Origin: a virus | Lineage: Duplodnaviria > Heunggongvirae > Uroviricota > Caudoviricetes | Length of the DNA: 64,000 nt | IMG/VR virus record: IMGVR_UViG_3300010409_000003 | Strand: one strand, 5' to 3' | Shown here: piece by piece, positions 17,372 through 64,000 of the stretch | How positions within the stretch are numbered: the stretch's first letter is position 1 | Layout of the letters: every line of letters begins with the position of its first letter | Program-made: the position numbers and the translations under genes | Notes under the pieces: generated by a model | Database searches by the model: none | What the model was told of the DNA's origin: nothing | The model's input: the letters and a program-made list of their open reading frames with translations, nothing else

Positions 17372-17387
17372 TAAGTAGTTCACAGAT

Positions 17388-17415
17388 AGCCCACTTTAAC
17401 AGTGGGCTTTTTATT
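17388..17415 (+). terminator. rho-independent terminator closing the rightward early block
   Basis: AGCCCACTttaacAGTGGGCTTTTTATT. Confidence 0.7.
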
Positions 17416-17419
17416 GCCT

Positions 17420-19233
17420 AGAATTTACCAATCAAGGTAGGCAGACAGGTACACTTAAACAGGACAAAACTAGGTAGTACACCTCAGTATAAAGACTACA
17501 GATTGCTACTGTTGTATACAAACCCTTAGTTGTTGGTATAAGGCACACTATAAGCTTGCAATACTAAGCTGTAAGAGATAGTAGGAGGCTAGTATAAGTG
17601 TTGTTATAAGGGGGTTAACTAAGTATCAACTAAGTAGCTACTGTTTCTATATGACTGTGTTGTATACTAGAGGATGCTATTTAGTGTTGTGTTCTAGTGT
17701 TATAACCTAGTATGTCAAGTATAAGTGGTAGTATAAGGAGAGACTAAACTAGTTAGTGTAATTAGTTTATACAACTTTAGTTACTACTGTTTACAGTGAC
17801 CTATTGTATATAGAATATAAGTAGTTAATATAAGATAGATAAATATAAGGTACGGTATAAGTTAGTATACTTAGTTGGTCTAACTAGGTTGCTACTGTTG
17901 TATAAGGCTTAAGATAGTTTATATAAGTTATTCTAATGATAGTTGTAAGTATTTAAGTTTTACTAATATAAGCTATTAACCTAGTAGGTGTTTAACAATT
18001 CCCAATTTCCCTTATAAACTACTATAAATTCCCCCATATAAAGCACATCCTACTCTTTACCCTCCATTTTCCCCTATTAAATACTCCCTATTTAGCCTTT
18101 TAATACTATACCCTACCCATTACCTTAGTTTTATCTAAAGTCCTCTTAGAATGGCTCCTAGTGGCTCCTACTCTATGTTGTAGCTATAAACTATACCAAT
18201 ATAAACTTGTCCTATAAGGGGGTAATATAAGTTGAGGCTAATTAGGAGGTGAACTAGGCATAAATATAAGTTTTGTACTATAAGCTTGTATAATATAAAT
18301 AAGCCAATATAAGGCTATTAAATAGGAAAGTGTACCTAGGGTATAGCTAACTAGTTTAAGTGGCTTAGAATGGCTAATATAAGCTTAGAATAGTATAAGT
18401 AGGTTAAGTATAAGAGGTATAATATAAGAGGGCTATACTGATATTTTAGAATTACTAGAGGAATATAAAGAGGGGGAGTGGAGTGGTTAAACACCTCAAT
18501 TATAAAATACCTTAAATATAACTAAAGGTAGTCTACTCTTCCCTCAATACAACAGTAGCAACCTTAGTAGTCAACTAGTTAGTATAATATAAATTACAAT
18601 TATAAATTAGTCACTTAAGTCTACCTACCATAGTAGTCCTCTATAAACTTGCATCTATAAATCTAACACTATTTACATACAACAGTAGCAACTAAGGTAG
18701 TAAACTATAGTAGTCAATCTGTCATGCTAACAGAGTATAATCAGAGACAGTCTATAAGAAGTTTATCTTAATTCTAGTATACAATTTGTTACCTATAACG
18801 TATCATTTTGTCTACCTAATTAGTGTTGTAATAGTTCGGAACGAACAGTGGCAAATTGAGGCTATAAATATAAAATATTACCTCTATAAACTTGTTCATC
18901 ATGTCTTGATATTTTAGTATATAAGCTGTATTAATAATCTTATGAAAACAGGCTGTTCATATACAAATTTAGTTGAAATGGATATTAACTGATATTTGTA
19001 CTATATGTCTATTAAGAATAGTGGGTAAGAATACACTGATATTTTAGTATATAAGAATGGCTCTATAAGGCTTTATATCTAGGTAGGCATACATTTGTAT
19101 GTATAATTGATTTAAGTTGATTAGAGAGCTTCTGAGGAGGTTTGAGGGTATATTTGAAGGTAATTTATCTATAAACAGGAAAGTATATAAATAGATATAG
19201 AAATTGGGCATTATTGAATAGAGGGTATAAGAA
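17420..19233. other. 1.8-kb ORF-free repeat-dense region (candidate replication origin, genome terminus or ncRNA locus)
   Basis: No ORF of 60 aa or more on either strand. The iteron GTTGCTACTGTTGTAT occurs at about 17503 and 17890 (plus) and 18550 and 18682 (minus). There are about 20 (A)ATATAAG(G) elements between 17547 and 18430. The stretch 18000-18130 has almost no G and 18180-18480 has almost no C. CTGATATTTTAGTATATAAG occurs three times (18441, 18907, 19036). Confidence 0.6.
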
Positions 19234-19267
19234 AAGACACTAATATTTAATGTAGTGTCTTTATATT
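19234..19267. terminator. bidirectional hairpin terminator at the end of the leftward block
   Basis: AAGACACTAatatttaatgTAGTGTCTT with T/A-rich flanks on both strands. Confidence 0.55.
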
Positions 19268-19277
19268 AAATTAATCA

Positions 19278-20525: not shown

Positions 20526-20832
20526 AATCTGGTATATAGTGTTCAGCTATAAATTTATATACTGCCAACACTCTACAGTTTTCTTCTACGTATCCATCTT
20601 TACCTTCAACACTAACTTTATGAGTTGCCTGTTCGTCTTCACCTTCTATATATTCTACATTAAGGTTGTAACGTCTAATAAATGCATCACACATATAAGG
20701 CTTAATACAAGCACCTATACGTTCTAGTATGTGATGGTATGTACTTATCTCAAAACTATTAAGCTCTCTGTGTAGAGTGTGTATATAGTGGTTAGCTTCT
20801 GCTTGGTTAACTAGTTTGTTCATTAGATACAC
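20494..20832 (-). CDS. hypothetical protein (paralog of 22522..22830)
   Basis: 112 aa. Shares the N-terminal QAEAN.Y motif and a C-terminal VY.F.A.H motif with the 22522 ORF. Confidence 0.45.
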   Translation of the reverse strand: MYLMNKLVNQAEANHYIHTLHRELNSFEISTYHHILERIGACIKPYMCDAFIRRYNLNVEYIEGEDEQATHKVSVEGKDGYVEENCRVLAVYKFIAEHYIPDFDKGEDNDST

Positions 20833-21941
20833 TCACTATTTAATTTATCTAAGTAATACTGTCTAGCTAAGTCAGAGACCTTCTTACCTACATCTTTCAT
20901 TGTTAACTTAGACTCTTCTAGGGTATCTCCCTCTTCTTTATTTATATCACGATTAACCCAACCAATATAATTACCTATGTTTTTCTGGTCTAACCCTACT
21001 TCATCAACACCTTGTTGTAACCTATTATCAGTCACAGCGTAATCTACAAAAGATTTAATACTATTTAATTTCTCAGGACATACAGCAGCTACAGATTTAA
21101 CTTTAGATACTGAGTGCTTCTTACCTTTAGTCTTAAACCAATTACCACTGTCATAGTAGTACTCTTGTGATAAAGGTGTCCACACTAAACCTTCTCCTAA
21201 GAGTTGCCCCACACCTTCTCCATCTTTTAGGTTTAGTGCTTTGGATACAGGGCAACAGTTTTCTACTTCTTCTGTCAAGCCAACTAGCTTATTTTGAGAA
21301 TACTCAGGTTTGTTAAAGTCTATATTTAATTCTTGATATGGAAAATCTGTAATAGCGTATATACCTGCTTCCTGTGTTAATTCACAAGTTAACTTAGAGC
21401 AAAGTAAAGTATTTAACCAACCTGTTTTATCATCTTGATTAGTCTCTCCTGACTTGATACCAAATATGAAGAATGCCTTATTAGGTAGATAAGAAATACC
21501 TACACCTTTCTGAATACCTTGTCCACACCATTCACCTGAAATCTTAATAGGGAATTTCACATCCCCATAGGATTCCTTAATTTCTTTGTAAGCTCTGTCT
21601 AATATAACTTTGACGTTATCTAGTTTACGAATCATAGATTGTGCAAATTCAGCATTATCTTTATGTACCATTGAGTTATCAAATTCATCTACTTCAGCTA
21701 GTAAATTATTCTTACTATGAAAGGTAATACTCATATCTTCATGTAAAATAATACTCCCATTAGTCCCATGTAACTTAGTTGTACCTATGTAAGTCACTGT
21801 AGGTGCTTTTTTAGATAAGTCAAAAATAGGTTTCTGTGTTACTTCATCATACCCTATATAACGAGAAGAATGTCGTATATTCTTAACTACGTTACGAAAT
21901 TGACCTGTACTATGAAATTTAATATTTTTATCTGTCATCAT
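20823..21941 (-). CDS. RNA ligase, Rnl2-like nucleotidyltransferase
   Basis: 372 aa. IGTTKLHGTNGS matches the Rnl2-family motif I KxHGTN (lysine adenylation site). Downstream EGLVWTP is motif-IV-like. Confidence 0.6.
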   Translation of the reverse strand: MMTDKNIKFHSTGQFRNVVKNIRHSSRYIGYDEVTQKPIFDLSKKAPTVTYIGTTKLHGTNGSIILHEDMSITFHSKNNLLAEVDEFDNSMVHKDNAEFAQSMIRKLDNVKVILDRAYKEIKESYGDVKFPIKISGEWCGQGIQKGVGISYLPNKAFFIFGIKSGETNQDDKTGWLNTLLCSKLTCELTQEAGIYAITDFPYQELNIDFNKPEYSQNKLVGLTEEVENCCPVSKALNLKDGEGVGQLLGEGLVWTPLSQEYYYDSGNWFKTKGKKHSVSKVKSVAAVCPEKLNSIKSFVDYAVTDNRLQQGVDEVGLDQKNIGNYIGWVNRDINKEEGDTLEESKLTMKDVGKKVSDLARQYYLDKLNSECI

Positions 21942-23311: not shown

Positions 23312-23590
23312 CTAAAACAATTCTGGATTAGTCTTCATTACAGCCTCTTTCAAACCTGCTATACCACATAATGAAAACCCTGTACTTCCATCCCAATCTT
23401 TAAACCACCTGTCATACCTAATATCAAACTTATATCCATGTTCCTCTTGTAGTTGCTTTAATTCAGCAGCCCAAGCATCCCACTGACCATCATTGATAAC
23501 TGTATGCCCTAATATGTAATAAATATAGCTATGATGTGCTAACATTATCCTAAGTTGTTGTACTCTTTCGGTTATAGGTTTAGTTACCAT
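23312..23590 (-). CDS. small protein resembling domain Ia (N-terminal NAD/NMN-binding helical domain) of NAD-dependent DNA ligase LigA
   Basis: 92 aa. ITERVQQLRIMLAHHSYIYYILGHTVINDGQWDAWAAELKQLQEEHG parallels LigA [49 protein letters not shown]. No adenylation domain follows. Confidence 0.4.
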   Translation of the reverse strand: MVTKPITERVQQLRIMLAHHSYIYYILGHTVINDGQWDAWAAELKQLQEEHGYKFDIRYDRWFKDWDGSTGFSLCGIAGLKEAVMKTNPELF

Positions 23591-23888
23591 TTAAAGCTTC
23601 CTCTAAAGCCTTTTTAAAATAAAATCTACTGTTATTATACTTTAATTCAAATTGGTAACTACCATCACCTTCTTTAGTGGCAGTAAATACGTCATCATTA
23701 ATGTACAAGTGTTCTTTCTCTATAGTGTAAACATAACCGTCTACGGCTACAACATTAGGACAATGAGTGTCAAAATAGTCAGTAATATCCTCTATCAAAC
23801 TCCTGTAGTAATCATTAATATCAATATAATCTTCTATTGTTTTACCTGTAGGTATTAATTTACCTTTAACGTGTTCTATGTTATTCAT
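23580..23888 (-). CDS. hypothetical protein (tandem paralog of 24081..24401)
   Basis: 102 aa. H(V/I)(K/R)GKL(I/R)PTGKTIE(D/E)Y and C-terminal ALEEAL are shared with the 24081 ORF. Confidence 0.5.
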   Translation of the reverse strand: MNNIEHVKGKLIPTGKTIEDYIDINDYYRSLIEDITDYFDTHCPNVVAVDGYVYTIEKEHLYINDDVFTATKEGDGSYQFELKYNNSRFYFKKALEEALNGN

Positions 23889-23907: not shown

Positions 23908-24099
23908 TTATAACTCATTATCAATAAAATAGTCAAGTAATTCTTCTAAATCTTCAGATTCTTCACTAGTCATGCTACCTTGCTCAATTAGGTATAGTAC
24001 AAACAAAGTAGCACCTTGTACTTTTAAACTTTTATCTCTAACTTCTCTGTTACAAGTAGTGCCGCAACATATTTCATCAATCATGTACACTCCTTGCAA
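23908..24099 (-). CDS. hypothetical protein
   Basis: 63-aa ORF between the two paralogs. Confidence 0.35.
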   Translation of the reverse strand: MQGVYMIDEICCGTTCNREVRDKSLKVQGATLFVLYLIEQGSMTSEESEDLEELLDYFIDNEL

Positions 24100-24401
24100 T
24101 TTTCTAGTGCTTCTTCTAATGCTTCCTCAAAACCACAACCTCCATTGTAATATTTAATTTCAAAGGTATAACTTCCGTCCTCTCCTTTAATAGAATTAAA
24201 TATATCCCCATAAGGTTCTATATTTTCACTTACTATAGTGTAAACTAACCCCTCAACTTCTGTAGCAACTCTATAAAAGTTTTCTCTAAAGTACTCATCT
24301 ATAGTACTATATGGGTAAGATAATTCAATATCCCCTACATACTCTTCTATAGTTTTACCCGTAGGTCTTAATTTACCTCTGATATGCTCTACTTCACTCA
24401 T
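24081..24401 (-). CDS. hypothetical protein (tandem paralog of 23580..23888)
   Basis: 106-aa ORF. Confidence 0.5.
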   Translation of the reverse strand: MSEVEHIRGKLRPTGKTIEEYVGDIELSYPYSTIDEYFRENFYRVATEVEGLVYTIVSENIEPYGDIFNSIKGEDGSYTFEIKYYNGGCGFEEALEEALENCKECT

Positions 24402-52168: not shown

Positions 52169-53275
52169 ATGGGACTACCCGTAATAATTAAAACAAACAT
52201 TACAAAGAATACGAGTTCTGTACAACGTGCAGAGTTTAATATTCCTTTGTTCTTATATGATGCAGGAGACTCTAGCGCCCCTGATGTCGATTTTGGAGGT
52301 CGTGTAAGAGTCTATTCTACTTTAGATTCAGTATTAGATGACTTCGCACTTACAGAAGCCCCTTACTTAGCAGTAGCAGCATACCTTAGTCAAAACCCTG
52401 CTGTTAGTCAAGTAATTATAGGTCAGTATTATAGTGCAGGTACACCAGATGCTTCTTATACAGCAGCAGCAGTGGCTTGTAGTTTAGAGAATGATACTTG
52501 GTATCAAATAGGTATGGAAGACCACACTGAATCCGAAGTATTAACTATGGCGGCTTACGTAGAGGCTAAACAACGTTTATTCTTTACATCAAACAATGTA
52601 GCAGCTTCGGTAGATACTACTTACAATGCAGGTGCAGCAGTAGCAGGGGATATACTAGGCCAACTAGCAGACTCTAACTACGAACGTACAGCAGTATTGT
52701 GGCACCACGAAGCAGATACAGCGTTCCCTGAATGTGCATTTGCAGGGCGTAATTTACCATTTAGAGCAGGAACAGCTAACTGGGCGCACTTAGCATTAAG
52801 TGGTGTTGGTGCTTCTCAGAACGCATTAGGTAATGTACTTAATGATACTCAGATTACAAATTTAACAGCACGTAATGGTAACTTCATTTATTCTCAGCGT
52901 GGTCAGTTCCGTACATGGCAAGGTCAAGTTGTTAATGGTGAGTGGTTAGATATTGTTCGTGGAGTTGATGGTTTACGTGAAGACATTGATGCAACCCTAT
53001 TAGAAATGTTAGATAATCAAGCAGGTAGCGGCATTAGGATGACAGATGCAGGTTTAGCTCAAATTGAGAACACTTTAGACTCTGTGTTAACACGTTGGGT
53101 AGACTACGGCTTTATTCAAGCTAACTACACAATCACAATGCCTAAAGCAATTGATATTCCTTTTGCAGACAAAGCAGCACGTATTATCCGAGATATTAAG
53201 TTTGAAGCATTCTTAGCAGGTTTTGTTAATGCAATCAATCCAATATCAGGTAATGTAACTTACGAAGTATCTTAA
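52169..53275 (+). CDS. tail sheath protein
   Basis: 368 aa. N-terminus MGLPVIIKTNI. It lies upstream of two tube-sized genes, a chaperone pair and the tape-measure gene (Mu L/M/Y-like order). Confidence 0.5.
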   Translation: MGLPVIIKTNITKNTSSVQRAEFNIPLFLYDAGDSSAPDVDFGGRVRVYSTLDSVLDDFALTEAPYLAVAAYLSQNPAVSQVIIGQYYSAGTPDASYTAAAVACSLENDTWYQIGMEDHTESEVLTMAAYVEAKQRLFFTSNNVAASVDTTYNAGAAVAGDILGQLADSNYERTAVLWHHEADTAFPECAFAGRNLPFRAGTANWAHLALSGVGASQNALGNVLNDTQITNLTARNGNFIYSQRGQFRTWQGQVVNGEWLDIVRGVDGLREDIDATLLEMLDNQAGSGIRMTDAGLAQIENTLDSVLTRWVDYGFIQANYTITMPKAIDIPFADKAARIIRDIKFEAFLAGFVNAINPISGNVTYEVS

Positions 53276-53288
53276 GGAGATATTATAA

Positions 53289-53726
53289 ATGAGTGATATG
53301 ATGAAAACGTACATGCTTGCTAATTGCCAGTTTGTATGGAATGGCATTGATATGTCAAGTGGTGTAGGTAGTGACTCAGTTCTGACAGCTACACGTACAC
53401 ATGACCTAATCACAACTAGTGGTAATGCTAGAGGTGATAATGCTAACTCTAAGAATATTAACAAGCATGCTACTATCGAGTTTACCTTGATGAAAAATAG
53501 TTCTGTTAATAAAGCCCTTATACTAGCTTATGTGGCACAAGAAAATATACAAGAAGATTACTGGAGTAATTTCACTGTAATTGACCCAAGCGACCCTATG
53601 CAAATGACAGCTATTAATTGTTGGTTTACTAAACTACCAGATATGACTAAGGCTAATGAAGCAGGTGAAGTTACATGGATGTTTGGTTGTCACCAGTTAG
53701 AGTTGATACCTACCTTAGATATCTAA
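53289..53726 (+). CDS. tail tube protein
   Basis: 145 aa, directly after the sheath gene. Confidence 0.5.
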   Translation: MSDMMKTYMLANCQFVWNGIDMSSGVGSDSVLTATRTHDLITTSGNARGDNANSKNINKHATIEFTLMKNSSVNKALILAYVAQENIQEDYWSNFTVIDPSDPMQMTAINCWFTKLPDMTKANEAGEVTWMFGCHQLELIPTLDI

Positions 53727-53742
53727 GTAGTCAGGAGTCTAT

Positions 53743-54195
53743 ATGAGCTATATAAATAATTTTCTAGAGACATATAGACCTCAAGAGGTTTCTTTTGTTT
53801 TTAACGGATTAGACCTGACAACTGGACTAGACCCAACATCTCATGTAGTGGTACGTAGGAATACTAAAAAATATTCTTATGTACCTGATATAGGTGGTGA
53901 GGGTAGAGGTGCTAGATTATTAAATTCAGATAACAGTGCAACTATTACAGTAAAACTCTTTAGTACTTCACAGGTACATAAGTTCTTATACGAATTATAT
54001 AAAGAAGATGATGGGACTAATCCTAATAGTATTAGTTCTTTTACTTTTAATGATGAACGTAATAATGGTATGGCTTATCAGAAAGCTACAAATGTATGGA
54101 TATCTGACCAACAGGAAGTTGATTATAGTGATACAGTAGGTTCTATAGCATGGGAATTTACAGCTAGTGACTTACAACCTATATTTGTAGAGTAG
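53743..54195 (+). CDS. tail tube-like / tail protein
   Basis: 150-aa ORF. Confidence 0.4.
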   Translation: MSYINNFLETYRPQEVSFVFNGLDLTTGLDPTSHVVVRRNTKKYSYVPDIGGEGRGARLLNSDNSATITVKLFSTSQVHKFLYELYKEDDGTNPNSISSFTFNDERNNGMAYQKATNVWISDQQEVDYSDTVGSIAWEFTASDLQPIFVE

Positions 54196-54254
54196 TGTAC
54201 TAGGAGTAGCTAGTTATAGTTACTCCTTTAATTTATAACAATTAAGGAGGTTCT

Positions 54255-54638
54255 ATGAGTTTTGAACATAGACAGAAAACAACAGAGATTAATGGTAAGA
54301 CTTACACATTGATTACATTTGGTGCTAAGAAGAGTTTTGGTGTAATCCCTCAGATTATAACAATGTTAGGTGAGAACTCTAGTGACTTTGGTGAAATGGC
54401 AATGTCTGTATTAGGACATAAAGATGGTTTAAAGTTGATAGAAACATTACTATCAGATATGTCTTGTGACGGCAGAGCTATTAATTCTTTTGACGACCAT
54501 TTTGCAGAATACCGAGGTGATTTACTCCCATGTGTAGCCTTTAGCTTAGCGGAGAATGTACTGCCTTTTTTAGGAAGCGATTCACTAGCGAGCATGGCAA
54601 CGATAGTGGAAACAGCAATGCAAGGCTTAACCAAGTAG
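54255..54638 (+). CDS. tail assembly chaperone (G-like product)
   Basis: 127 aa, located just upstream of the tape-measure gene. Confidence 0.6.
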   Translation: MSFEHRQKTTEINGKTYTLITFGAKKSFGVIPQIITMLGENSSDFGEMAMSVLGHKDGLKLIETLLSDMSCDGRAINSFDDHFAEYRGDLLPCVAFSLAENVLPFLGSDSLASMATIVETAMQGLTK

Positions 54639-54835
54639 TACGAAGGATTGATAAAGAATCATCATTATCTCCTTTTACTTCAATGGCAATGAGGGTAGCA
54701 ACCTCTGGTAAGTTCAATGATAGCTATTTAGATATATGCCATGTTTGGACAGCAGAGGATTTATTCCAAGCTTTAGAAATGTTAGATATTATGTCTGAGG
54801 TTGAAAGAGCTTCTATGCCAGAATCAAACAACTAG
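54255..54835 (+). CDS. tail assembly chaperone frameshift product (GT-like) via -1 slip at T_TTT_TTA (54566..54572)
   Basis: The -1 frame is open from 54545 to a TAG at 54833. The slippery heptamer U UUU UUA sits in the zero frame at 54566-54572. The extension reads RKRFTSEHGNDSGNS...SMPESNN. Confidence 0.6.
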
Positions 54836-54843
54836 GATATATA

Positions 54844-57177
54844 ATGTCAGGATTTTCAATAGCAGACTTCTTTGCTCAGTTAAGTATAAAAGCTGATACT
54901 AAAGAAGTTAAGAAAATAGAAGACTCATTGAATAAGATTAATAAATCTTTGAAGATGATAGGAGTTACTAGTGTAGCTCAAGCTAAGAAAGTAGATACTG
55001 TTTTTAAAGGGGAAGCCTTACGTAGACAACACTTACAAGTGAAAGGTCTACATGATGAACTAGAAAAAATGGGTAGCTCTTTAGTTGGCTTTAAGAACAG
55101 ACTAGTTGGTATCGATAAGCAATCTGAATTCGTTAAGATTAAGAATGACATTAAAGAAGCTAAACTAGAAGCTCAACGGTTTAAGAATGAACTTAAACTA
55201 AAGCATAACACTAATAGCATACTAGGTAAAGATAACATCTTTAAGAAGCCGGATGCTTTTAATGGTGCTAATGATAAAGGTAATAATGCTACTAGGATGT
55301 TCCAAGGAGGCGATGACTTCTGGGAAAGATCTGATAAAGGTAGACGTTTACTACATGACCTCAGTGAAGACCAAGTTGACCAATTAAGAGCATTAGCTGC
55401 CGAACAAGTTAAGATGAAGAAGTCGGTAACTGACGCTAATTTAGCTTTAAATACACAAGCTAAGAAGTTTAGGAAAATCAACGATACTATCCCTAAAGTT
55501 AATGCACAAATAACCTCATTAACTAGAGCACAGAATAGGCTAAAAGAATCAGCTAGGCAACTTGCATTATCAATGGTAGGTGCTTTCGCGGTATTCGAAG
55601 GTGTTAAGAGTATCAACAGAGTTGGTCAAGACTTTGAAGGTATGGAAGCTGCAATGTTGGCTTCTTCAGGTAGTTCTAAGTTAGCAGCTAAAGACTTAGC
55701 TTTTGTAGATGAACAAGCTGTACGATTAGGTTTAGACCTACGAGAGACCACAGATGCTTACTCTAAGTTGCAATTTGCAGCTAAAGGTAAAATGAGTAAA
55801 GGACAAACTAAAGAATTATTTACAGGTTTTAGTGAGTTTGCTACAGCCTTGAAAGTTAGTCCAGAACAACAGAAATCAGGGTTAAGAGCCTTGCAACAAA
55901 TGCTCAATAAAACTACGGTTATGAGCGAAGAATTAAAACAACAACTCGCTTAATGTTGGGCGCTTAGGGTAGGAAACTCCCTTAGAAGAATCTATTTAAT
56001 TGCTGGGACAACTTGTTAAGCTTAGTATACAATACTACATAGTGATATAGTAGCGACCTGTAAAAATTACTAGGATAGAGTTAATCAGCCTCCAATCTCC
56101 TTTAGAGGAGCAGGATCAACGACTAGAGGGCAACCTCGTACACTACAAGCTATTGGTAGTGGAAACAATAGACACCTAAACAAGTGATGTTGTAGGTGAT
56201 GATATAGTCTATTCTTACATGAGAATGTAAGCAGTTCATAAGGTTACTACCTTTGAGAACGAGTAACTTAGTAGCGTAAGTTATTGAATGCTAAGGAACA
56301 AGTACCCGGAAGTATACAAATATTCGCCAACGCTTTAAATGTTTCTGAAAAAGAATTATTTAAAATGATGGAACAAGGTACAATAGTATCCTCAGAGGTA
56401 CTACCTAAAGTAGCTAAAGAATTTGCCAAAGCCGCTAGAAGCGGTGGTGCATTAGCGGAAGCTTTGAATACAGTTAGGGTACAACAAGGTAGATTTCTAA
56501 CAGATACACAGAAAGCACAGAATACTATATTCACTAATGGTTTTGGAGAGGGGCTAGCTTCTGCTTACAAAACATTAAGTCAAGTATTGAAAGACTTAGA
56601 ACCAGTGTTGAAAGGTATAGGTCAAGGTTTTGGATTCTTATTCAGAACTTTAGCCGCAGGTATTAATATGATAACTGCACCTCTAAGATCTATAAAATTA
56701 CTTACAGACTTACTAATAGACTTAGATGAAGTGTCTAATACTTTCGCAGAGAATACCGTACCTAGAATGGTAGCCGCAGGTGCTTTATTGTTAACTGCTT
56801 GGGGGAGAGTACTAGCTAAGTTTTTAGCAGTAAAAGCAGTACTAGAGGAATTAGTAGCTCTTAGTTCTAAGAATATAGTAGGCCAAGTAGAACGTGATAT
56901 AGGAAGGGACATAGGTTTTGACTTAGGTGTAGGTGAAAGCACTAGGAGTGGTGATAACCCTTCTCTCAATAAAGAAGCCACTAGCTTTGATAATTACCTT
57001 CAATTTTATAACAGCGAAGATAGGTTTAGTGCTATGGATTGGTTAAAGGATAATGTACTAAATAGTATGGGTTCGGAGATAGTAATAAATCAACAACCTA
57101 CTATAGATGAATACGGCAGTGTCCATATTGAGAATACTGTACAACGTTCTATAGTCAATGGTCAAGCTCAGAGGTAA
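54844..57177 (+). CDS. tape measure protein, two exons (54844..55953 and about 56275..57177) separated by a putative group I intron
   Basis: Both ORFs are in the same reading frame. The first is Lys/Gln/Ala-rich helical. The second begins (L)NAKEQ...VSEKELFKMMEQGTIVSSEVLPKVAKEFAKAA, typical of a tape-measure interior. Confidence 0.6.
55954..56274 (+). ncRNA. putative ORF-less group I self-splicing intron in the tape-measure gene
   Basis: It starts UAAUGUUGGGCG immediately after an exon-terminal U (compare the T4 td intron, which starts UAAUUGAGGCC). The IGS GGCG can pair with exon CGCU. R-like UCAACGACUAGAGGG is at 56119. S-like GAUAUAGUCUAU is at 56204. It ends in G before an in-frame continuation. 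The 3' boundary is 56274 or 56280. Confidence 0.5.
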
Positions 57178-57179
57178 CA

Positions 57180-57749
57180 ATGGCAACTAAACATATATTA
57201 ACACTCGCTAATGGATTAATATTAGCTATTGATGCGACACAGGAGTTGACTGAAACTTTTAAATCCCAAGCTACAGATTTACCTACAGCTAATAGGGAAT
57301 CTGTTTCAGACCATTTTATAAAGAAAAATCCTACTTTTAACTTTTCAGGAGTTATTAGTGGTGTTTATAATCCAAGGTCTCCTAGTCTAAATACATCATC
57401 TATCCTCTCCCAGAATTTTAGAAATGTAGTACAACAAGGTAATATACTTACTTTCTATTCTGGTGACAGATCTTTTGATAATTGTCATGTAGATTCTGTA
57501 GTCCTTAAAAGAGATGTAGAAGTTGGTAAACTAGGTTGGCGTATAGCAGTAACTCTAACTCAGATTAAGATAGCTACGGGAGGTAGCGAGTCTGTAGTAG
57601 CCGTTAACTCTAATGTAACTGACCAAGCTTCTGATAAAAAGAATGTAGGCTCTAGTAGTACAAAAGATGTCAACCCTATTATAGAGTTAGAAGGTTTTGG
57701 TGTCTTTGGTGGTAAGAATGCTTACGGGTCTATTAGCGGTACAGGTTAA
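57180..57749 (+). CDS. putative tail/baseplate protein (DNA-circulation-protein position)
   Basis: 189 aa. Assignment by gene order. Confidence 0.35.
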   Translation: MATKHILTLANGLILAIDATQELTETFKSQATDLPTANRESVSDHFIKKNPTFNFSGVISGVYNPRSPSLNTSSILSQNFRNVVQQGNILTFYSGDRSFDNCHVDSVVLKRDVEVGKLGWRIAVTLTQIKIATGGSESVVAVNSNVTDQASDKKNVGSSSTKDVNPIIELEGFGVFGGKNAYGSISGTG

Positions 57750-57759
57750 GGATAATTAA

Positions 57760-58098
57760 ATGGCAATAGAAATTAGAACACCACAATCTGCTTGGACTTC
57801 TCAACAACTTACTATAGGTGGTGTAACACTTAACTTTGAGCTACGTTGGATGACTAGGGAAGAGGTTTGGGTAGCGGATATATTTGATACTAATGGTAAC
57901 TCAATACTAACAGGTATCGCCCTTACTATTAATCAATCTATAAACTTAAGTTACTATAGACCTCAATTACCAGAAGGAGACTTTTGGGTACTAAGGTTTG
58001 AAACTAAAGCTGATGATATTGATAGAGATAACTTAGGTACAGCCTTTAAGATTGTATTCCTCACAGAAGCGGAGAGTATTGATGCAGGTCTTAGGTAG
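57760..58098 (+). CDS. hypothetical tail protein
   Basis: 112-aa ORF. Confidence 0.4.
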   Translation: MAIEIRTPQSAWTSQQLTIGGVTLNFELRWMTREEVWVADIFDTNGNSILTGIALTINQSINLSYYRPQLPEGDFWVLRFETKADDIDRDNLGTAFKIVFLTEAESIDAGLR

Positions 58099-59149
58099 AA
58101 TATATGAGTTAGTTATTACTAATGCTACTAAGCAAACTGTGATTGAAGTCCCTGAGTTACTAGCACCCACTGATGACACAGAAACATTAGGTTCTTTTGG
58201 ATTATCATTACTATCTCCAACTGAGTCACAAGGTATAAGTGTTTATAGTACTTCCCCTCCTGATTCTAGAACTATACCCTTAGCAGATAAAACTAAGAGT
58301 AGAGTTTGGAATGGAGATTTAAAGTTACGAGCAACTGTAGAAAAGAATAACACTAATAGTAACACTAATAATGTGGAAATAGAATTATATAACCCGTCTA
58401 AAGAAGATTTATCTTTTGTCACAACTAAAGCTGATAAACGTTATATCTCGTTAAGAGGTGGTTATAAAACACTTAAAGATGGTGCTTTAGTTGATGAGTT
58501 TGATGCATTGCCTGAGATATTCACAGGGGATGTTATTGACATACGTAGTGAGAGACAGGGTGTTAATCTTGTTATGACTGTCGTAGCTAAAGATAGTGCA
58601 GCCTCTATACGTAAAGGTACGGTTAGTAAAAACTTCCCTAAAGGTACAGATAAGAAGACAGCTATAGAAGATATTGTAGGTTCTTGGGATGGTATTATAT
58701 TTACTAATAACTCTATTAGTCCAGAAGTAGAATTTACCTCAAGTAGTTTTACATCTTCATTTACTGCTTATGGGAACATAGGCTCTGTCTTAGATGAACT
58801 AACTAGAGATGAAGATATCGTATGGCATATAACTAACAACATATTCTACATGATAAGTAAATCAGAGCCTAAGCTAGCTAGACAGGTTACATTAAAACCT
58901 GAGAATATAATTAATGATATTAACAATATTCAACAATCTAACTTAAATGGTAAAACACCTCAAGGCTTAAAGTTTAGGACTTTCTTAGATGGCCTAATCA
59001 GTACCGACACTAAAATAGTCTTAAAAGACTTTGATACACTAGACCCCCAGAACCCCATAGATGGAGATTACAATGTTAGAACTATTAAACATGTTATGGA
59101 TACACATGGAGTTCCTTGGTATACAGAGTGTACGGTGGAGGCTAGATAA
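58082..59149 (+). CDS. putative baseplate hub / tail protein (Mu P / P2 D-like position); start trimmed to MQVLGR
   Basis: ORF track 58052..59149. Internal Met at 58082. Confidence 0.4.
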   Translation: MQVLGRIYELVITNATKQTVIEVPELLAPTDDTETLGSFGLSLLSPTESQGISVYSTSPPDSRTIPLADKTKSRVWNGDLKLRATVEKNNTNSNTNNVEIELYNPSKEDLSFVTTKADKRYISLRGGYKTLKDGALVDEFDALPEIFTGDVIDIRSERQGVNLVMTVVAKDSAASIRKGTVSKNFPKGTDKKTAIEDIVGSWDGIIFTNNSISPEVEFTSSSFTSSFTAYGNIGSVLDELTRDEDIVWHITNNIFYMISKSEPKLARQVTLKPENIINDINNIQQSNLNGKTPQGLKFRTFLDGLISTDTKIVLKDFDTLDPQNPIDGDYNVRTIKHVMDTHGVPWYTECTVEAR

Positions 59150-59802
59150 TGGCTTATGAATTTGACTTGTATGATATTACTAAGTCTCATGTGGATAAAC
59201 TAACTGACCAATTGTATACATCATTACCTGCTACTGTAACGGCATATTATGCTAAAAAACAGGCCGTAGACGTTACAATAGATATTAGGCAACCAAGTAC
59301 CTTAGATAGAGATGAAATGCCCTCTATGAGCCTTACAGAGGTTCCTGTAATCTTTCCTAGTGGGGGTAAAGGTATACTGAGCTTCCCCATCACGGCAGGA
59401 GATAAAGTGTTCTTATGCTTCTCTATGATGAGTCTTGATAAGTGGAAAGCTAATGGTGAAGGTGTATGTGGTGATAACCGTATGCACAGTAACAATGATG
59501 CGGTAGCTATAGCAGGTTTATTTAATTTAAGTAGTAACTTAGAACCTAACCCCGACGATGTAGAACTTAAGGCTTTTGGTTCAAAGGTTACATTAAAGAA
59601 ATCAGGGGATATAGAAGTAGTACCTTCAGGTAAGACAATTATAGATAGTGACGTAGAGATAACAGGTAACTTAGCCGTAGCAGGTAATACTGAATCTGAG
59701 GGTACATTAAAAGGTAATGTGGTTACTGATACTTCTACCGGTAATAAAGTAGGTACTCATGTACATCCAACTAACGGTGCTCCACCAACAGCAGGTACAT
59801 AA
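59149..59802 (+). CDS. baseplate spike protein (gpV-like)
   Basis: 217 aa located before gpW-like and gpJ-like genes. Confidence 0.45.
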   Translation: MAYEFDLYDITKSHVDKLTDQLYTSLPATVTAYYAKKQAVDVTIDIRQPSTLDRDEMPSMSLTEVPVIFPSGGKGILSFPITAGDKVFLCFSMMSLDKWKANGEGVCGDNRMHSNNDAVAIAGLFNLSSNLEPNPDDVELKAFGSKVTLKKSGDIEVVPSGKTIIDSDVEITGNLAVAGNTESEGTLKGNVVTDTSTGNKVGTHVHPTNGAPPTAGT

Positions 59803-60158
59803 TGGGCGATATATACTTAGATCCCTCAACAGGGGATATAGATTTTTCAACTAAGCAGCCAGTATTGATAACTGATAATGCAACTGCTGTTAGGCAGAGG
59901 TTACATATAAGACTAAACACTTTCCAAGGTGAGTGGTTCTATAACTCTGCTACAGGTGTTCCTTATTTCCAAGATATACTAGGTCAGCAGTTTGACCAAG
60001 ACATAATAGATAACACAATGAGGCGAACAATAATAGAAACAGAAGGTGTAGTTGAATTAACTTCCTACGAACCTTCATTCTCACGTTTAGCCAGAACTTA
60101 CAATATAACATTTACAGTAACTACCGAACAAGGTGATATTGTAACTGTAACTACTTAG
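59802..60158 (+). CDS. baseplate wedge protein (gpW / T4 gp25-like)
   Basis: 118 aa. GDIYLDPSTGDIDFS...LHIRLNTFQGEWFYNSATGVPYFQDILG matches the conserved gpW/gp25 family pattern. Confidence 0.65.
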   Translation: MGDIYLDPSTGDIDFSTKQPVLITDNATAVRQRLHIRLNTFQGEWFYNSATGVPYFQDILGQQFDQDIIDNTMRRTIIETEGVVELTSYEPSFSRLARTYNITFTVTTEQGDIVTVTT

Positions 60159-60166
60159 GATAACTA

Positions 60167-61738
60167 ATGGCAGGAGTAGACGAGAATGGCCTTACTATAA
60201 AGAGGCTTCCTGATATACTTAGTGAGTTCCAAGCAGCTATCAAAGCACAGTACGGGAATGATACTCCTGTAGATGCTAATAGTTTCTTCGGAATATTTAA
60301 TACTATTTACGGAGCTAGTGATGCTGAGGTATGGGAATTACTACAAACTTTAAACAATCAGTTTAGTCCTAACACAGCTTATGACAAGTGGTTAGACGAC
60401 ATAGCGGCTTACCTAAAAATAACAAGGTTACAACCTACAGCGAGTAAGGGTGAGTTATCTTTATTTGGCAATAGTGGTACTGTAATACCTGTTGGTACGG
60501 AATTTAGTGATTTAAATGGCGCTGTGTACCAATCAACAACAGAAGGCATCTTAGATACGGGTACTTCTAGAACGCCTATTGCTATCGGAACTACAAATGG
60601 GACAGGGATTACAGGGGAATCCTCTACCTTATATACTATCACTATCAACGGTGATACTTACAATGCCCAAACTTACTGGCCTAATGTACAATTAGAAGAT
60701 GTAGCTTTATCCTTTAAGAATTCTATAGGAGACCAACCTAATTATTATGTAGAGAGTTATACAGAACTTAATCCTGAATTTATTATAGGTGATAATCCTC
60801 CTGATGGAGGTAATAAAGGTACTATACTTAATATTATAAATAAGAATGCAGTAATCCCTATTACCATTACAACGGCAGTTACACAATCACCTATACCAGA
60901 ACATTACCAGTTTTCTATAGCATCTATACTTAAAAGTAACACTATTTCAACTTTCAGTGACTTTATAGAAGTAGAAGCAACCTTAGTAGGGTCTATAGAC
61001 ACACCTGTTAATACTCTAACTGCTATTGAAACTCCTGTAGTTGGCTTAGATTCTGTGTACAATCAAAACTCTATGGTAATAGGTCGTGACTTAGAAACAG
61101 ATGAAGAACTACGTGAAAGAATGAAGCAAGATGGGGCTATTAATAGTTACGCCACTGAACCTGCTATAAAAGCTAATCTTAGACAAGTAGAGGGCGTATC
61201 TTTTGTAGATATACAGGTTAATAAGAGTTATGTTACTGATACTGAAGGTAGACCTCCGAATAGCTATGAGTGTGTCGTTATAGGCGGTGACGAAGAAGAT
61301 ATTGCTAAGACTATATTAAATAGAGGTGCAGCAGGGATAGAGCCTCATGGTAACACCTCAGTTACTATAGATGACGATGATGGTAATCCACAAGTTATAA
61401 AGTTTTCTAGAGCAGTAGAAGAGTATATATGGTTGAAGTTGTATTACACTAAGAATACTGAGGAGGTTTTCCCTGACAATGGTACAGAACTTATGACTAC
61501 CTCAGCATTAGAATACGGAGAAGACCTCAACATAGGAGCTGATGTAATACCTAAGAGGTTCTTCGGTAGTGTTTACAGCTCTACTACAGGTATAGAAGAT
61601 CTAGTAATAAAAGTAGCTAAGTCGTCCGACCCAGTGGTAGAACCTGCTATAAGCGAATTTAGTGTAGAAAAAATAAGTATTCCTAGTGATAGTGTCTCTA
61701 GTTTTGCTGATTATAGGATAGAAGTGATAGAGGACTAA
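60167..61738 (+). CDS. baseplate protein J-like
   Basis: 523 aa, directly after the gpW-like gene. Confidence 0.5.
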   Translation: MAGVDENGLTIKRLPDILSEFQAAIKAQYGNDTPVDANSFFGIFNTIYGASDAEVWELLQTLNNQFSPNTAYDKWLDDIAAYLKITRLQPTASKGELSLFGNSGTVIPVGTEFSDLNGAVYQSTTEGILDTGTSRTPIAIGTTNGTGITGESSTLYTITINGDTYNAQTYWPNVQLEDVALSFKNSIGDQPNYYVESYTELNPEFIIGDNPPDGGNKGTILNIINKNAVIPITITTAVTQSPIPEHYQFSIASILKSNTISTFSDFIEVEATLVGSIDTPVNTLTAIETPVVGLDSVYNQNSMVIGRDLETDEELRERMKQDGAINSYATEPAIKANLRQVEGVSFVDIQVNKSYVTDTEGRPPNSYECVVIGGDEEDIAKTILNRGAAGIEPHGNTSVTIDDDDGNPQVIKFSRAVEEYIWLKLYYTKNTEEVFPDNGTELMTTSALEYGEDLNIGADVIPKRFFGSVYSSTTGIEDLVIKVAKSSDPVVEPAISEFSVEKISIPSDSVSSFADYRIEVIED

Positions 61739-61740
61739 TA

Positions 61741-62277
61741 ATGACAAAACCGACTAAACATGCAGAGTGGGCGCTTTTAGATAACACAGGTGCAGTAGAA
61801 GGACTCCCTAATAAAGAAGAGCCTGCCATTAACTACAAGAATTATGGTCAAGATGAGTATCAGATACTCCCACGACAATACATAAATTATATCCTCAGAC
61901 TTAATGACCAATGGAACAAATACTTTGAAGGTGAAATTGATACCCTTAATGATTTTAAAGATAAGAAAGGTTTTCTAGACGTTAGTGAAGTTTCTGTATT
62001 AACCCTTACAAAAGATTTATCTAATCGCTACTATATCTTTACAGGCACAGTAGTAACGCTAGGTAACGTAGTGTCTGTAGGTGGAGGTTCAGAAGAAATA
62101 GGTAGTACTATTAAAGTGAGAACTTCATCAGCCACTACAATATCTTTAGATGCAGGGGCTACATTAGTAGGATATTCAGGAAGCATACCTGCTGATAGGA
62201 CAGCAACATTCACCATAGAAGATATACCTAGTGGTACAGGAACTCAGTGGTCTTGTAGCATAAGTGCAGGAGCTTAA
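61741..62277 (+). CDS. baseplate / tail protein I-like
   Basis: 178 aa. Size and position match P2 gpI-like proteins. Confidence 0.4.
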   Translation: MTKPTKHAEWALLDNTGAVEGLPNKEEPAINYKNYGQDEYQILPRQYINYILRLNDQWNKYFEGEIDTLNDFKDKKGFLDVSEVSVLTLTKDLSNRYYIFTGTVVTLGNVVSVGGGSEEIGSTIKVRTSSATTISLDAGATLVGYSGSIPADRTATFTIEDIPSGTGTQWSCSISAGA

Positions 62278-62279
62278 TA

Positions 62280-62792
62280 ATGGATTTAGATTTCTTTTTT
62301 GAAGATGAAGAACAAACAATTTACAAAGTTAGACCTAACGATTACAAGATGCCAGAAGCAATACACGAAGTAGGTGAAGGTCTTATAAGCCTCCTAGAAG
62401 CCTCTGATAAGGTTTTTTCTTGTCGTATGTGGCAATGGTATGACATATACAAACAATGGCTTAAAAATGGTTCTGAGGGAGATATGTTTGAACAACCTAC
62501 CTTACAGGAAGCTACTGTAGAATTATCAAACCACTTTAGACAGTTATTTAAAGCTGTACGTACTGACTTAGTTCAAAACTCTACTGTAGAGATCGATGGT
62601 AAGACTTATGATGCAGATGAAGATAGTCAGCGAAGATTAATGGCAGCTATACTTTCAGCAGTGGACGACGAAGAGACAACTGTGTGGGTGTTACATGATA
62701 ATACCACTACGTATCTTAATAGACCACAACTTAAGTCAGTACTAAGAGCTTGTACGCTACAGATGTCTAGTATTTGGGTTCCAGAGGAGTAG
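62280..62792 (+). CDS. hypothetical tail protein (possible fibre assembly factor)
   Basis: 170-aa ORF. Confidence 0.35.
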   Translation: MDLDFFFEDEEQTIYKVRPNDYKMPEAIHEVGEGLISLLEASDKVFSCRMWQWYDIYKQWLKNGSEGDMFEQPTLQEATVELSNHFRQLFKAVRTDLVQNSTVEIDGKTYDADEDSQRRLMAAILSAVDDEETTVWVLHDNTTTYLNRPQLKSVLRACTLQMSSIWVPEE

Positions 62793-62797
62793 TAGAT

Positions 62798-64000
62798 GAC
62801 ACCTGTTATGGTTAACCATAAGCAACAAGGTTATAATAGATTGTTAGATATATTTAAAGATAGACCTAATATTAAATCTATGTTAGAAATATATCTAAAA
62901 CAGAATGATGATTTAGAGAGTGCTATATTTCAATTATTAGACTCTAGGCATTTATCCGACCTAGAATCTGTAGTAGGAGAACAATTAGATACTATAGGTT
63001 CTATAGTAGGTCAAGAAAGGATGGGACAGTTAGACGAGGATTATAGGAAGTCTATTTTGTTTAAGATAGGGGTTAATAACTCACAAGCTACTCCTAAATA
63101 CTTAACTACCCTACTTAAAGAAACTACAGAATCTACAGAAGTTAAATATTTTCCCCACTACCCTGCATCTTACATAGCAGAATTTAATGGTAACGAGATA
63201 CCTAATGACTTTTTATTAGAATTTCAAAAGGCCACAGCAGCAGGTGTTAACGCAGGTTTTATCCACAATAAGGATGATAATGGTTGGGTATGTTGTGAGG
63301 TAGGTAGTACATTACCAATAGCAGATAAAAGTATCTTACCTGAATATACAGCTATAGATGGTATAAGTGCTAGTGAAATATATATGGAGAATGTTAACCC
63401 TCCTGAAAGGGTGCCTACTCATGTTAAAGGTAGTAAATTAAGACAAGCATTTTCTATTACCTCCTACACGGGGAACAGCAGTGTTCCTCTAGAAATAGAC
63501 GTAGGTTTAGATTTAGAATCTACAGAGAGTATGCTGTTATGGTGGAGTGGTCAGAGTATAGGGTACGTAAATAACTACTCACCCCTATTTCCTATAGTAG
63601 GTAGTGGTACTGGGAGTTTTAGGAGATGGTATGGAGGTAACAGGATTCAAAGCTCTACAGACCTAACCTCTACGGGATTCTCAGAGCCAAGTAACGTCCC
63701 AGTCACATTCATAAACCAAACAGGTCAAGAATACTATGTAAACTCTTTAAAGTCTACCTCAGAAGTGTTGGAGATATTTGAGTATACAGGAGATGGGACT
63801 CTGTCTCAAACAGTAAGCCACAATCTCAATAAGAAACCACTTTATATGGCTATACAGCGAAAGAACCTAGATGGAGTAGTCTATTGGTTTAAAGGTATGG
63901 GTACTGATGAAGTATTCAACGATAGGTTTGATGTAACCGTAGGAGCTGTATTAGGAGGAACCTTACCAACATCAACTACTATAACTGTAGGAGATATTGG
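62798..64000 (+). CDS. tail fibre-like protein, partial (runs off the right edge)
   Basis: Manual find: ATG at 62798 after CCAGAGGAG, open to the window end (over 400 codons). It is absent from the ORF track because it has no stop. Confidence 0.5.

Follow-up and report, generated by a model that had tools for sequence, protein, structure and literature searches.

The Nlig-Ia locus

We analysed a 64,000-nt stretch of viral DNA (the window; IMG/VR virus record IMGVR_UViG_3300010409_000003, Caudoviricetes) containing a minus-strand gene for a 92-residue protein that corresponds to the N-terminal domain Ia (Nlig-Ia) of the nicotinamide adenine dinucleotide (NAD+)-dependent DNA ligase LigA, with no ligase catalytic module attached to it. 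The gene, its start site and the parts of its product that are discussed below lie as follows.

23312..23590, minus strand: stand-alone Nlig-Ia coding sequence, 92 aa, ATG to TAA (from the listing of open reading frames, ORFs)
23597..23603, minus strand: Shine-Dalgarno sequence GAGGAAG, 6 nt 5' of the Nlig-Ia ATG (sequence inspection)
23438..23575, minus strand: predicted helix-loop-helix core of Ia, residues 6-51 (helix 6-27, loop, helix 34-51; AlphaFold2 (AF2), phmmer, hhalign)
23477..23521, minus strand: predicted nicotinamide mononucleotide (NMN)/nicotinamide-binding residues Y24, Y25, D34, W37 and D38 (alignment to E. coli LigA)
23369..23416, minus strand: family-specific C-terminal motif Y59-D-R-W-F-K-D-W-D-G-S-T-G-F-S-L74 (family alignment)

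The gene is part of a long run of closely packed minus-strand genes, and inspection of the sequence showed an 11-nt overlap between its start and the stop of the gene upstream (23580..23888), an operon-like arrangement. An identical 92-residue protein (P0001) is already present in public assemblies.

Domain identity, predicted fold and ligand-contact residues

The protein matched Pfam family PF22745, entitled 'DNA ligase-like, N-terminal NAD+-binding domain (Nlig-Ia)', over residues 7-75 with 68.5 bits (cutoff 27; E 7.9e-19), a match that, judged on sequence, is far above chance level, and it matched PHROG 6466 with an E-value of 1.3e-17. The only meaningful phmmer matches among PDB sequences were LigA N-termini (Thermus filiformis, E. 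coli, S. aureus and others), which covered residues 6-51, the part that can be aligned to the T. filiformis and E. coli enzymes. NCBIfam LigA models aligned over their positions 1-45 only, scoring 16-20 bits against cutoffs of 369-1051, and this pattern of NCBIfam, Pfam and PDB matches therefore identifies the protein as an Ia domain, not a ligase. Nlig-Ia is the sole Pfam match of the ORF, with no match to OB, Zn, HhH or BRCT domains, and an adenylation domain with the KxDG catalytic lysine is not present in the chain, which ends at residue 92. The ORF that follows had no family match in Pfam or PHROG, and a phmmer search with E. coli LigA residues 70-671 gave no significant match in the window or in the flanking genome (L083/L084). 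The 'DNA ligase' labels that PHROG and GenBank attach to this solo family are misnomers.

To model the fold, we used AF2 with a 122-sequence alignment; an earlier single-sequence AlphaFold model, with a predicted local distance difference test score (pLDDT) of 52, was discarded. The resulting model (pLDDT 93.4, predicted template-modelling score 0.83) is all-helical, with helices at residues 6-27, 34-51, 57-63, 72-76 and 80-87. Its top 28 Foldseek matches in the PDB are all LigA, with probabilities of 0.84-1.00 (mostly 1.00) and E-values that are weak because the aligned columns number only 44-79. Profile comparison with hhalign placed the solo family on E. coli LigA residues 3-54 with a probability of 95.3%. 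The predicted structure of the 92-residue protein is the alpha-helical Ia fold.

Residues Y24, Y25, D34, W37 and D38 correspond to Y22, H23, D32, Y35 and D36 of E. coli LigA in the phmmer, family and hhalign alignments alike. These E. coli residues, which contact the NMN moiety, are reportedly needed for the reaction with NAD+, as gathered from the work of Sriskanda and Shuman in 2002 and from complexes of LigA with NAD+ or NMN. Across 153 solo-family representatives, Y24, Y25 and D34 are invariant and position 37 is aromatic throughout (W in 123, F in 21, Y in 9); position 38 is Q in 75 of them and D in 55.

A second conserved block lies towards the C-terminus, where the family-wide motif takes the form Y59-D-x-x-F63-x-D-W66-D-G-S-T70-G71-x-x-L74 and is conserved nearly as well as the ligand-contact block: F63 is found in 150/153 representatives, G71 in 153/153 and L74 in 146/153, and both W66 (W or F) and T70 (T or S) hold their residue class in 153/153. 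In the AF2 model, this motif forms two short helices (57-63 and 72-76; pLDDT >87). When the family is aligned to E. coli LigA with hhalign, the alignment ends at residue 56; the motif stays unaligned and is therefore specific to the solo proteins. We infer that it may substitute for contacts that the adenylation domain provides in LigA.

The original prediction, made from the sequence without database searches, was of a stand-alone LigA domain Ia, and the PF22745 and PHROG matches, the conservation of the NMN-contact residues and the predicted fold bear this out; the structural comparison that it proposed returned LigA as the best Foldseek match, and its statement that an adenylation domain is missing agrees with the stop at residue 92, the family-less next ORF and the empty LigA 70-671 search of the window. 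The LigA-like motif that it described is real, with a gap from Y.Y to EL..L of 18 residues, not 15, and what it called the first helix-loop-helix of the ligase is indeed there, with a similarity that spans the whole Ia hairpin and is followed by the family-specific C-terminal segment.

The solo family, its gene neighbourhoods and the phage genome

A profile search over 1.84 billion cluster representatives (50% identity clusters) returned 920 solo Nlig-Ia clusters at E<=1e-3 and 299 at E<=1e-10, nearly all of them 75-190 aa long (147 of the top 150 are <=187 aa). By tblastn, the family is found in 166 GenBank phage records, where it is frequently labelled 'DNA ligase', the carriers including Kuravirus-type podophages of E. 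coli, Arthrobacter, Rhodococcus and Clostridium phages, Erwinia jumbo phages and others. The window protein is 30-45% identical to members from cultured phages and falls in a small sub-clade with five close relatives. Pfam scans of the longer family members revealed a single informative architecture, a superfamily 2 (SF2) helicase with Nlig-Ia inserted; this metagenomic protein (P0090, 688 aa) is SF2 helicase-like, with weak DEAD and Helicase_C matches and a strong Nlig-Ia match at residues 354-439.

Searching DNA with the degenerate pattern HSYIYY-x6-[IV]xDxxW, we found 81 IMG/VR contigs, while 596 Gb of species-representative genomes yielded just 4, each of them a contig from a metagenome-assembled genome that encodes a solo protein (105-143 aa); a scan of the genome contigs with an alignment of the close relatives gave no match. 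Taken together, the 81 viral and 4 metagenome-assembled contigs thus show that the solo Nlig-Ia family is essentially viral, in agreement with Iyer et al. This group (Iyer, Burroughs, Anantharaman & Aravind 2022; PMC9503650) described solo Nlig-Ia in 81 phages, all but one of them without any DNA ligase, found an Ia-less LigA module in a single phage only, and proposed that the solo domain acts as an NAD+ sensor or as a shield against NADase effectors. The sequestration idea of the original prediction is essentially this proposal, to which the window protein adds a diverged member of a published family; what had been put forward as an unusual strategy was already in print in 2022 (PMC9503650), for a domain that has its own Pfam entry and is common in phages.

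We compared gene neighbourhoods in 80 IMG/VR loci (+/-10 kb), which form 43 non-redundant groups. Nlig-Ia is a short stand-alone ORF in every one of the 80 loci, and its recurrent neighbours are genes for a RecA-like recombinase and a clamp-loader subunit (each in 14/43 groups), together with PD-(D/E)XK nucleases, the sliding clamp, family B DNA polymerase, single-stranded DNA-binding proteins, dCMP deaminase and thymidylate synthase. Similar replication and nucleotide-metabolism neighbours were seen in annotated phages and in the nearest long relative (L001). The LigA catalytic module, sought by phmmer with the residue 70-671 query, had no match in these 80 viral loci. In Proteus phage 10 (L163), the solo Nlig-Ia gene (5031-5297) overlaps the start of a gene (5290-7029) for a 579-aa protein, of which the last 170 residues are a dihydrofolate reductase domain and the first 400 residues have no match.

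Immediately upstream of Nlig-Ia in the window, two genes at 23580-23888 (-) and 24081-24401 (-) encode paralogous small proteins of 102 and 106 aa (45% identical, E 5e-19) with a small 63-aa ORF between them; both match PHROG 6035, to which no function is assigned.

The genome as a whole is that of a myovirus-like phage. A Pfam survey of 58 window ORFs identified a structural module with terminase, portal, capsid and tail genes, along with a primase-helicase, a PIF1/Dda-like helicase, a Dam methylase and an Rnl2-like RNA ligase. The public contig SRR5035895_3795 (51.5 kb) contains window positions 1-6424 and 52280-64000 at 100% identity, joining the end of the window to its start, and the genome is therefore circular or circularly permuted, with a size of ~90.7 kb. 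The 17.7 kb obtained from beyond the window encode DNA polymerase A, an HNH endonuclease, an Nmad5 (nucleotide-modification-associated) protein, an exonuclease, and tail and lysis proteins. Neither the window nor these 17.7 kb, together ~90% of the genome (all but ~9 kb), gave a match to a DNA ligase family, and since the phage thus appears to lack its own DNA ligase, it probably relies on the NAD+-dependent LigA of its host. Megablast of the Nlig-Ia region gave no match among GenBank phages and tblastn of a 472-aa ORF (40427-41845) gave only weak partial matches there; the phage therefore has no close cultured relative.

Away from Nlig-Ia, the same Pfam survey listed a pentapeptide-repeat protein, an SPFH/Band 7 protein, a LAGLIDADG endonuclease and a YwqH-like protein. 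A group I intron (55942-56231, +; RF00028, 77.7 bits, E 5e-18) lies between two ORFs (54844-55953 and 56284-57177) that both match the tape-measure family TMP_3, so that a self-splicing intron appears to interrupt the tape-measure gene. Between convergent gene blocks, a 1.9-kb region (17372-19277) with no ORF above 55 aa and no tRNA carries four copies of the 18-nt motif AGrTTGCTACTGTTGTAT, two in each orientation, as well as many short TATAAG-type repeats, and may be an origin or a promoter cluster.

The Rnl2 neighbour is treated separately here as it bears on one of the functional alternatives.

20823-21941, minus strand: Rnl2-family RNA ligase, 1.4 kb downstream of Nlig-Ia (Pfam, PHROG, NCBIfam)

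The Rnl2-like protein carries a lysine motif of the usual KxHGTN form and matches Rnl2 of T4, an ATP enzyme. The order Nlig-Ia then Rnl2, at a distance of 1-1.5 kb across the two lineages, recurs in a second viral lineage (L054/L139 and L062/L146), where the RNA ligase gene lies at 11185-12231 in L054 and at 10929-11984 in L062 and no other gene within the loci examined is shared with the window. Rnl2 homologues occur in 145 of 50,697 phage records, 40/43 locus groups have no Rnl2 within 10 kb of Nlig-Ia, the taxa carrying Rnl2 and those carrying Nlig-Ia are mostly different, and in four cultured phages with Rnl2 that gene has no Nlig-Ia in its vicinity. We rejected an obligatory partnership, since the pairing is missing from most loci and from the cultured Rnl2 phages, and regard the pairing as a weak lead. 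The upstream genes in L054 belong to the RmlA/RmlC/RmlB dTDP-sugar pathway. In Vibrio phage Rocket24 (L167), an Rnl2 homologue (5992-6978) lies 1.6 kb downstream of genes (1335-4341) annotated as ribose-phosphate pyrophosphokinase and nicotinate phosphoribosyltransferase, presumably the usual labels of the NARP1 NAD+-reconstitution pair, and Pseudoalteromonas phage PH357 has its Rnl2 gene downstream of a polynucleotide kinase gene, one small gene away.

Candidate functions and comparison with known systems

Depletion of NAD+ ranks among the most frequent tactics of bacteria against phages, and bacterial DNA ligase, which is indispensable for phage replication, consumes NAD+. Against this background, we favour a non-catalytic binder of NAD+ or NMN that would serve as an NAD+ sensor or as a small protected reserve for phage replication and nick sealing, a reading to which we give about an even chance. 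Expressed from an early or middle DNA-metabolism operon of the phage, Nlig-Ia would bind the NMN end of NAD+, or free NMN, in the manner of LigA domain Ia, with the nicotinamide ring stacked between Y24 and W37, D34 and D38 bonding to the ribose and the carboxamide, and Y25 placed at the phosphate; residues 57-92 may pack on the helical hairpin where the ligase has its adenylation domain. NAD+ could in this way be sensed, or a small pool kept back, so that replication and nick sealing continue when NAD+ drops, for example under attack by NADase defences. By rough arithmetic, a burst of ~100 genomes of 91 kb would take on the order of 10^4 ligations and as many NAD+ molecules, equivalent to ~10-20 µM in a 1-fL cell, an amount that a modestly abundant binder could store, and a protected reserve would thus be quantitatively possible.

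Several points weigh against this reading. About half of the family has Q at position 38, the equivalent of E. coli D36, which LigA requires for its NAD+ reactivity. In LigA, the adenylation domain holds the AMP half of NAD+, and its absence here makes the affinity for whole NAD+ uncertain. A stoichiometric binder could not, by our estimate, shield a millimolar NAD+ pool, only a small reserve, and a 92-residue protein without an output domain can sense only through a partner. The Pfam survey of the 58 ORFs found no NAD+-salvage or NADase-related gene adjoining Nlig-Ia in the window, and our literature search brought up neither binding results nor phenotypes for members of the family, PMC9503650 being the only paper on the solo domain that it returned.

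The original prediction had offered sequestration of NAD+/NMN and competition with or modulation of host LigA as possible roles; all are compatible with the data, and the genomic context favours none of them. Direct action on host LigA through protein contact, with Nlig-Ia docking on the adenylation domain or competing with LigA's own Ia, so that adenylylation is boosted or retuned for the phage replisome or host ligation is blocked, seems to us unlikely, with a real but minor share of the probability. It would fit the position of the gene beside clamp loader, clamp, polymerase and RecA genes in many lineages, the helicase fusion in P0090, which ties the domain to DNA transactions, the presumed dependence on host LigA of a phage with no DNA ligase in ~90% of its genome, and the near-absence of ligase genes from phages with solo Nlig-Ia (PMC9503650). 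However, the strictly conserved residues are the ligand contacts, the hosts span Proteobacteria, Actinobacteria and Firmicutes with differing LigA surfaces, and inhibition of LigA would hurt a phage that needs it. A variant in which free Ia is a trans-acting cofactor module, supplying NAD+ to host LigA or docking on it so that phage nick sealing continues under an NADase drain, or else acting with the Rnl2-like ligase on NAD-capped RNA 5' ends, has a slim chance in our judgement. Such NMN-linked ends are chemically pre-activated, with NMN as the leaving group, and the Nlig-Ia to Rnl2 gene order, found twice independently, is the sole hint for the RNA version.

We consider it very improbable that Nlig-Ia belongs to a split ligase, as its detached cofactor-binding subunit working in trans with an Ia-less LigA module or with the Rnl2-like ligase at 20823-21941 and conferring NAD+ use or recognition of NMN-linked 5' ends. 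Given the rarity of Rnl2, two independent adjacencies among 43 groups do exceed expectation (p<0.01 as a rough estimate), but the great majority of groups and the four cultured Rnl2 phages lack the pairing, the carrier taxa mostly differ, and the KxHGTN-bearing Rnl2-like protein resembles the ATP enzyme of T4. An Ia-less LigA module is missing from the window, from L083/L084 and from the 80 loci, and PMC9503650 has one in a single phage; the version of the split ligase that requires such a module was rejected after the LigA(70-671) phmmer searches. Finally, a functionless origin, whether by decay of a formerly full-length phage LigA gene down to its N-terminal part or by helices that resemble LigA by chance, is scarcely credible. 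The Pfam E-value of 7.9e-19, the hundreds of diverged homologues that share the short length and the invariant residues, the conserved C-terminal motif that LigA does not have, and the intact, tightly packed ORF with its Shine-Dalgarno site and no ligase-like sequence after it all argue against it, and we rejected both pseudogene and chance resemblance on the family-wide conservation.

With NAD+ binding as the favoured reading, a widespread, virus-only module of ~90 residues, predicted to bind NAD+ and encoded in replication operons, would be a plausible non-enzymatic answer to NAD+ depletion. The family-wide invariant residues, the C-terminal motif, the context statistics and the virus restriction point to concrete mutants and assays, and correct naming matters too, since the routine 'DNA ligase' annotation wrongly implies that these phages seal their own DNA.

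Among known proteins, the window protein is closest to the solo Nlig-Ia phage proteins of PF22745 (for example ECBP2_0056 of Escherichia phage ECBP2), with which it shares the domain, the size class and the ligand-contact residues; it is likewise viral and likewise without a ligase catalytic module, and belongs to the family on every count that could be tested. Unlike the cultured members, it comes from an uncultured ~91-kb myovirus-like phage without a close GenBank relative, and it is unusual among solo members in having an Rnl2-like RNA ligase 1.4 kb downstream. LigA domain Ia (E. coli residues 1-69) is its best structural match and shares the helix-loop-helix and the Y-Y/H...D-x-x-aromatic-D constellation for NMN binding. 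In contrast to LigA, however, the protein is not fused to adenylation, OB, Zn, HhH or BRCT domains, and so is incapable of ligation, carries a conserved C-terminal extension outside the LigA alignment, and scores 20 bits against a cutoff of 369 with the NCBIfam LigA model.

An anti-defence role is hypothetical and is suggested by analogy: the purpose of Nlig-Ia may resemble that of two phage answers to NAD+-depleting immunity, namely NAD+ reconstitution by NARP1/NARP2, which would let NAD+-dependent steps go on, or Tad1/Tad2-type sponges, which are also small proteins and bind an NAD-related molecule non-catalytically. Neither has any sequence or fold relationship to the window protein, and the NARP proteins, unlike it, are enzymes. 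The Tad sponges bind cyclic ADP-ribose signals, which have no nicotinamide moiety, whereas the Ia domain is built to hold nicotinamide.
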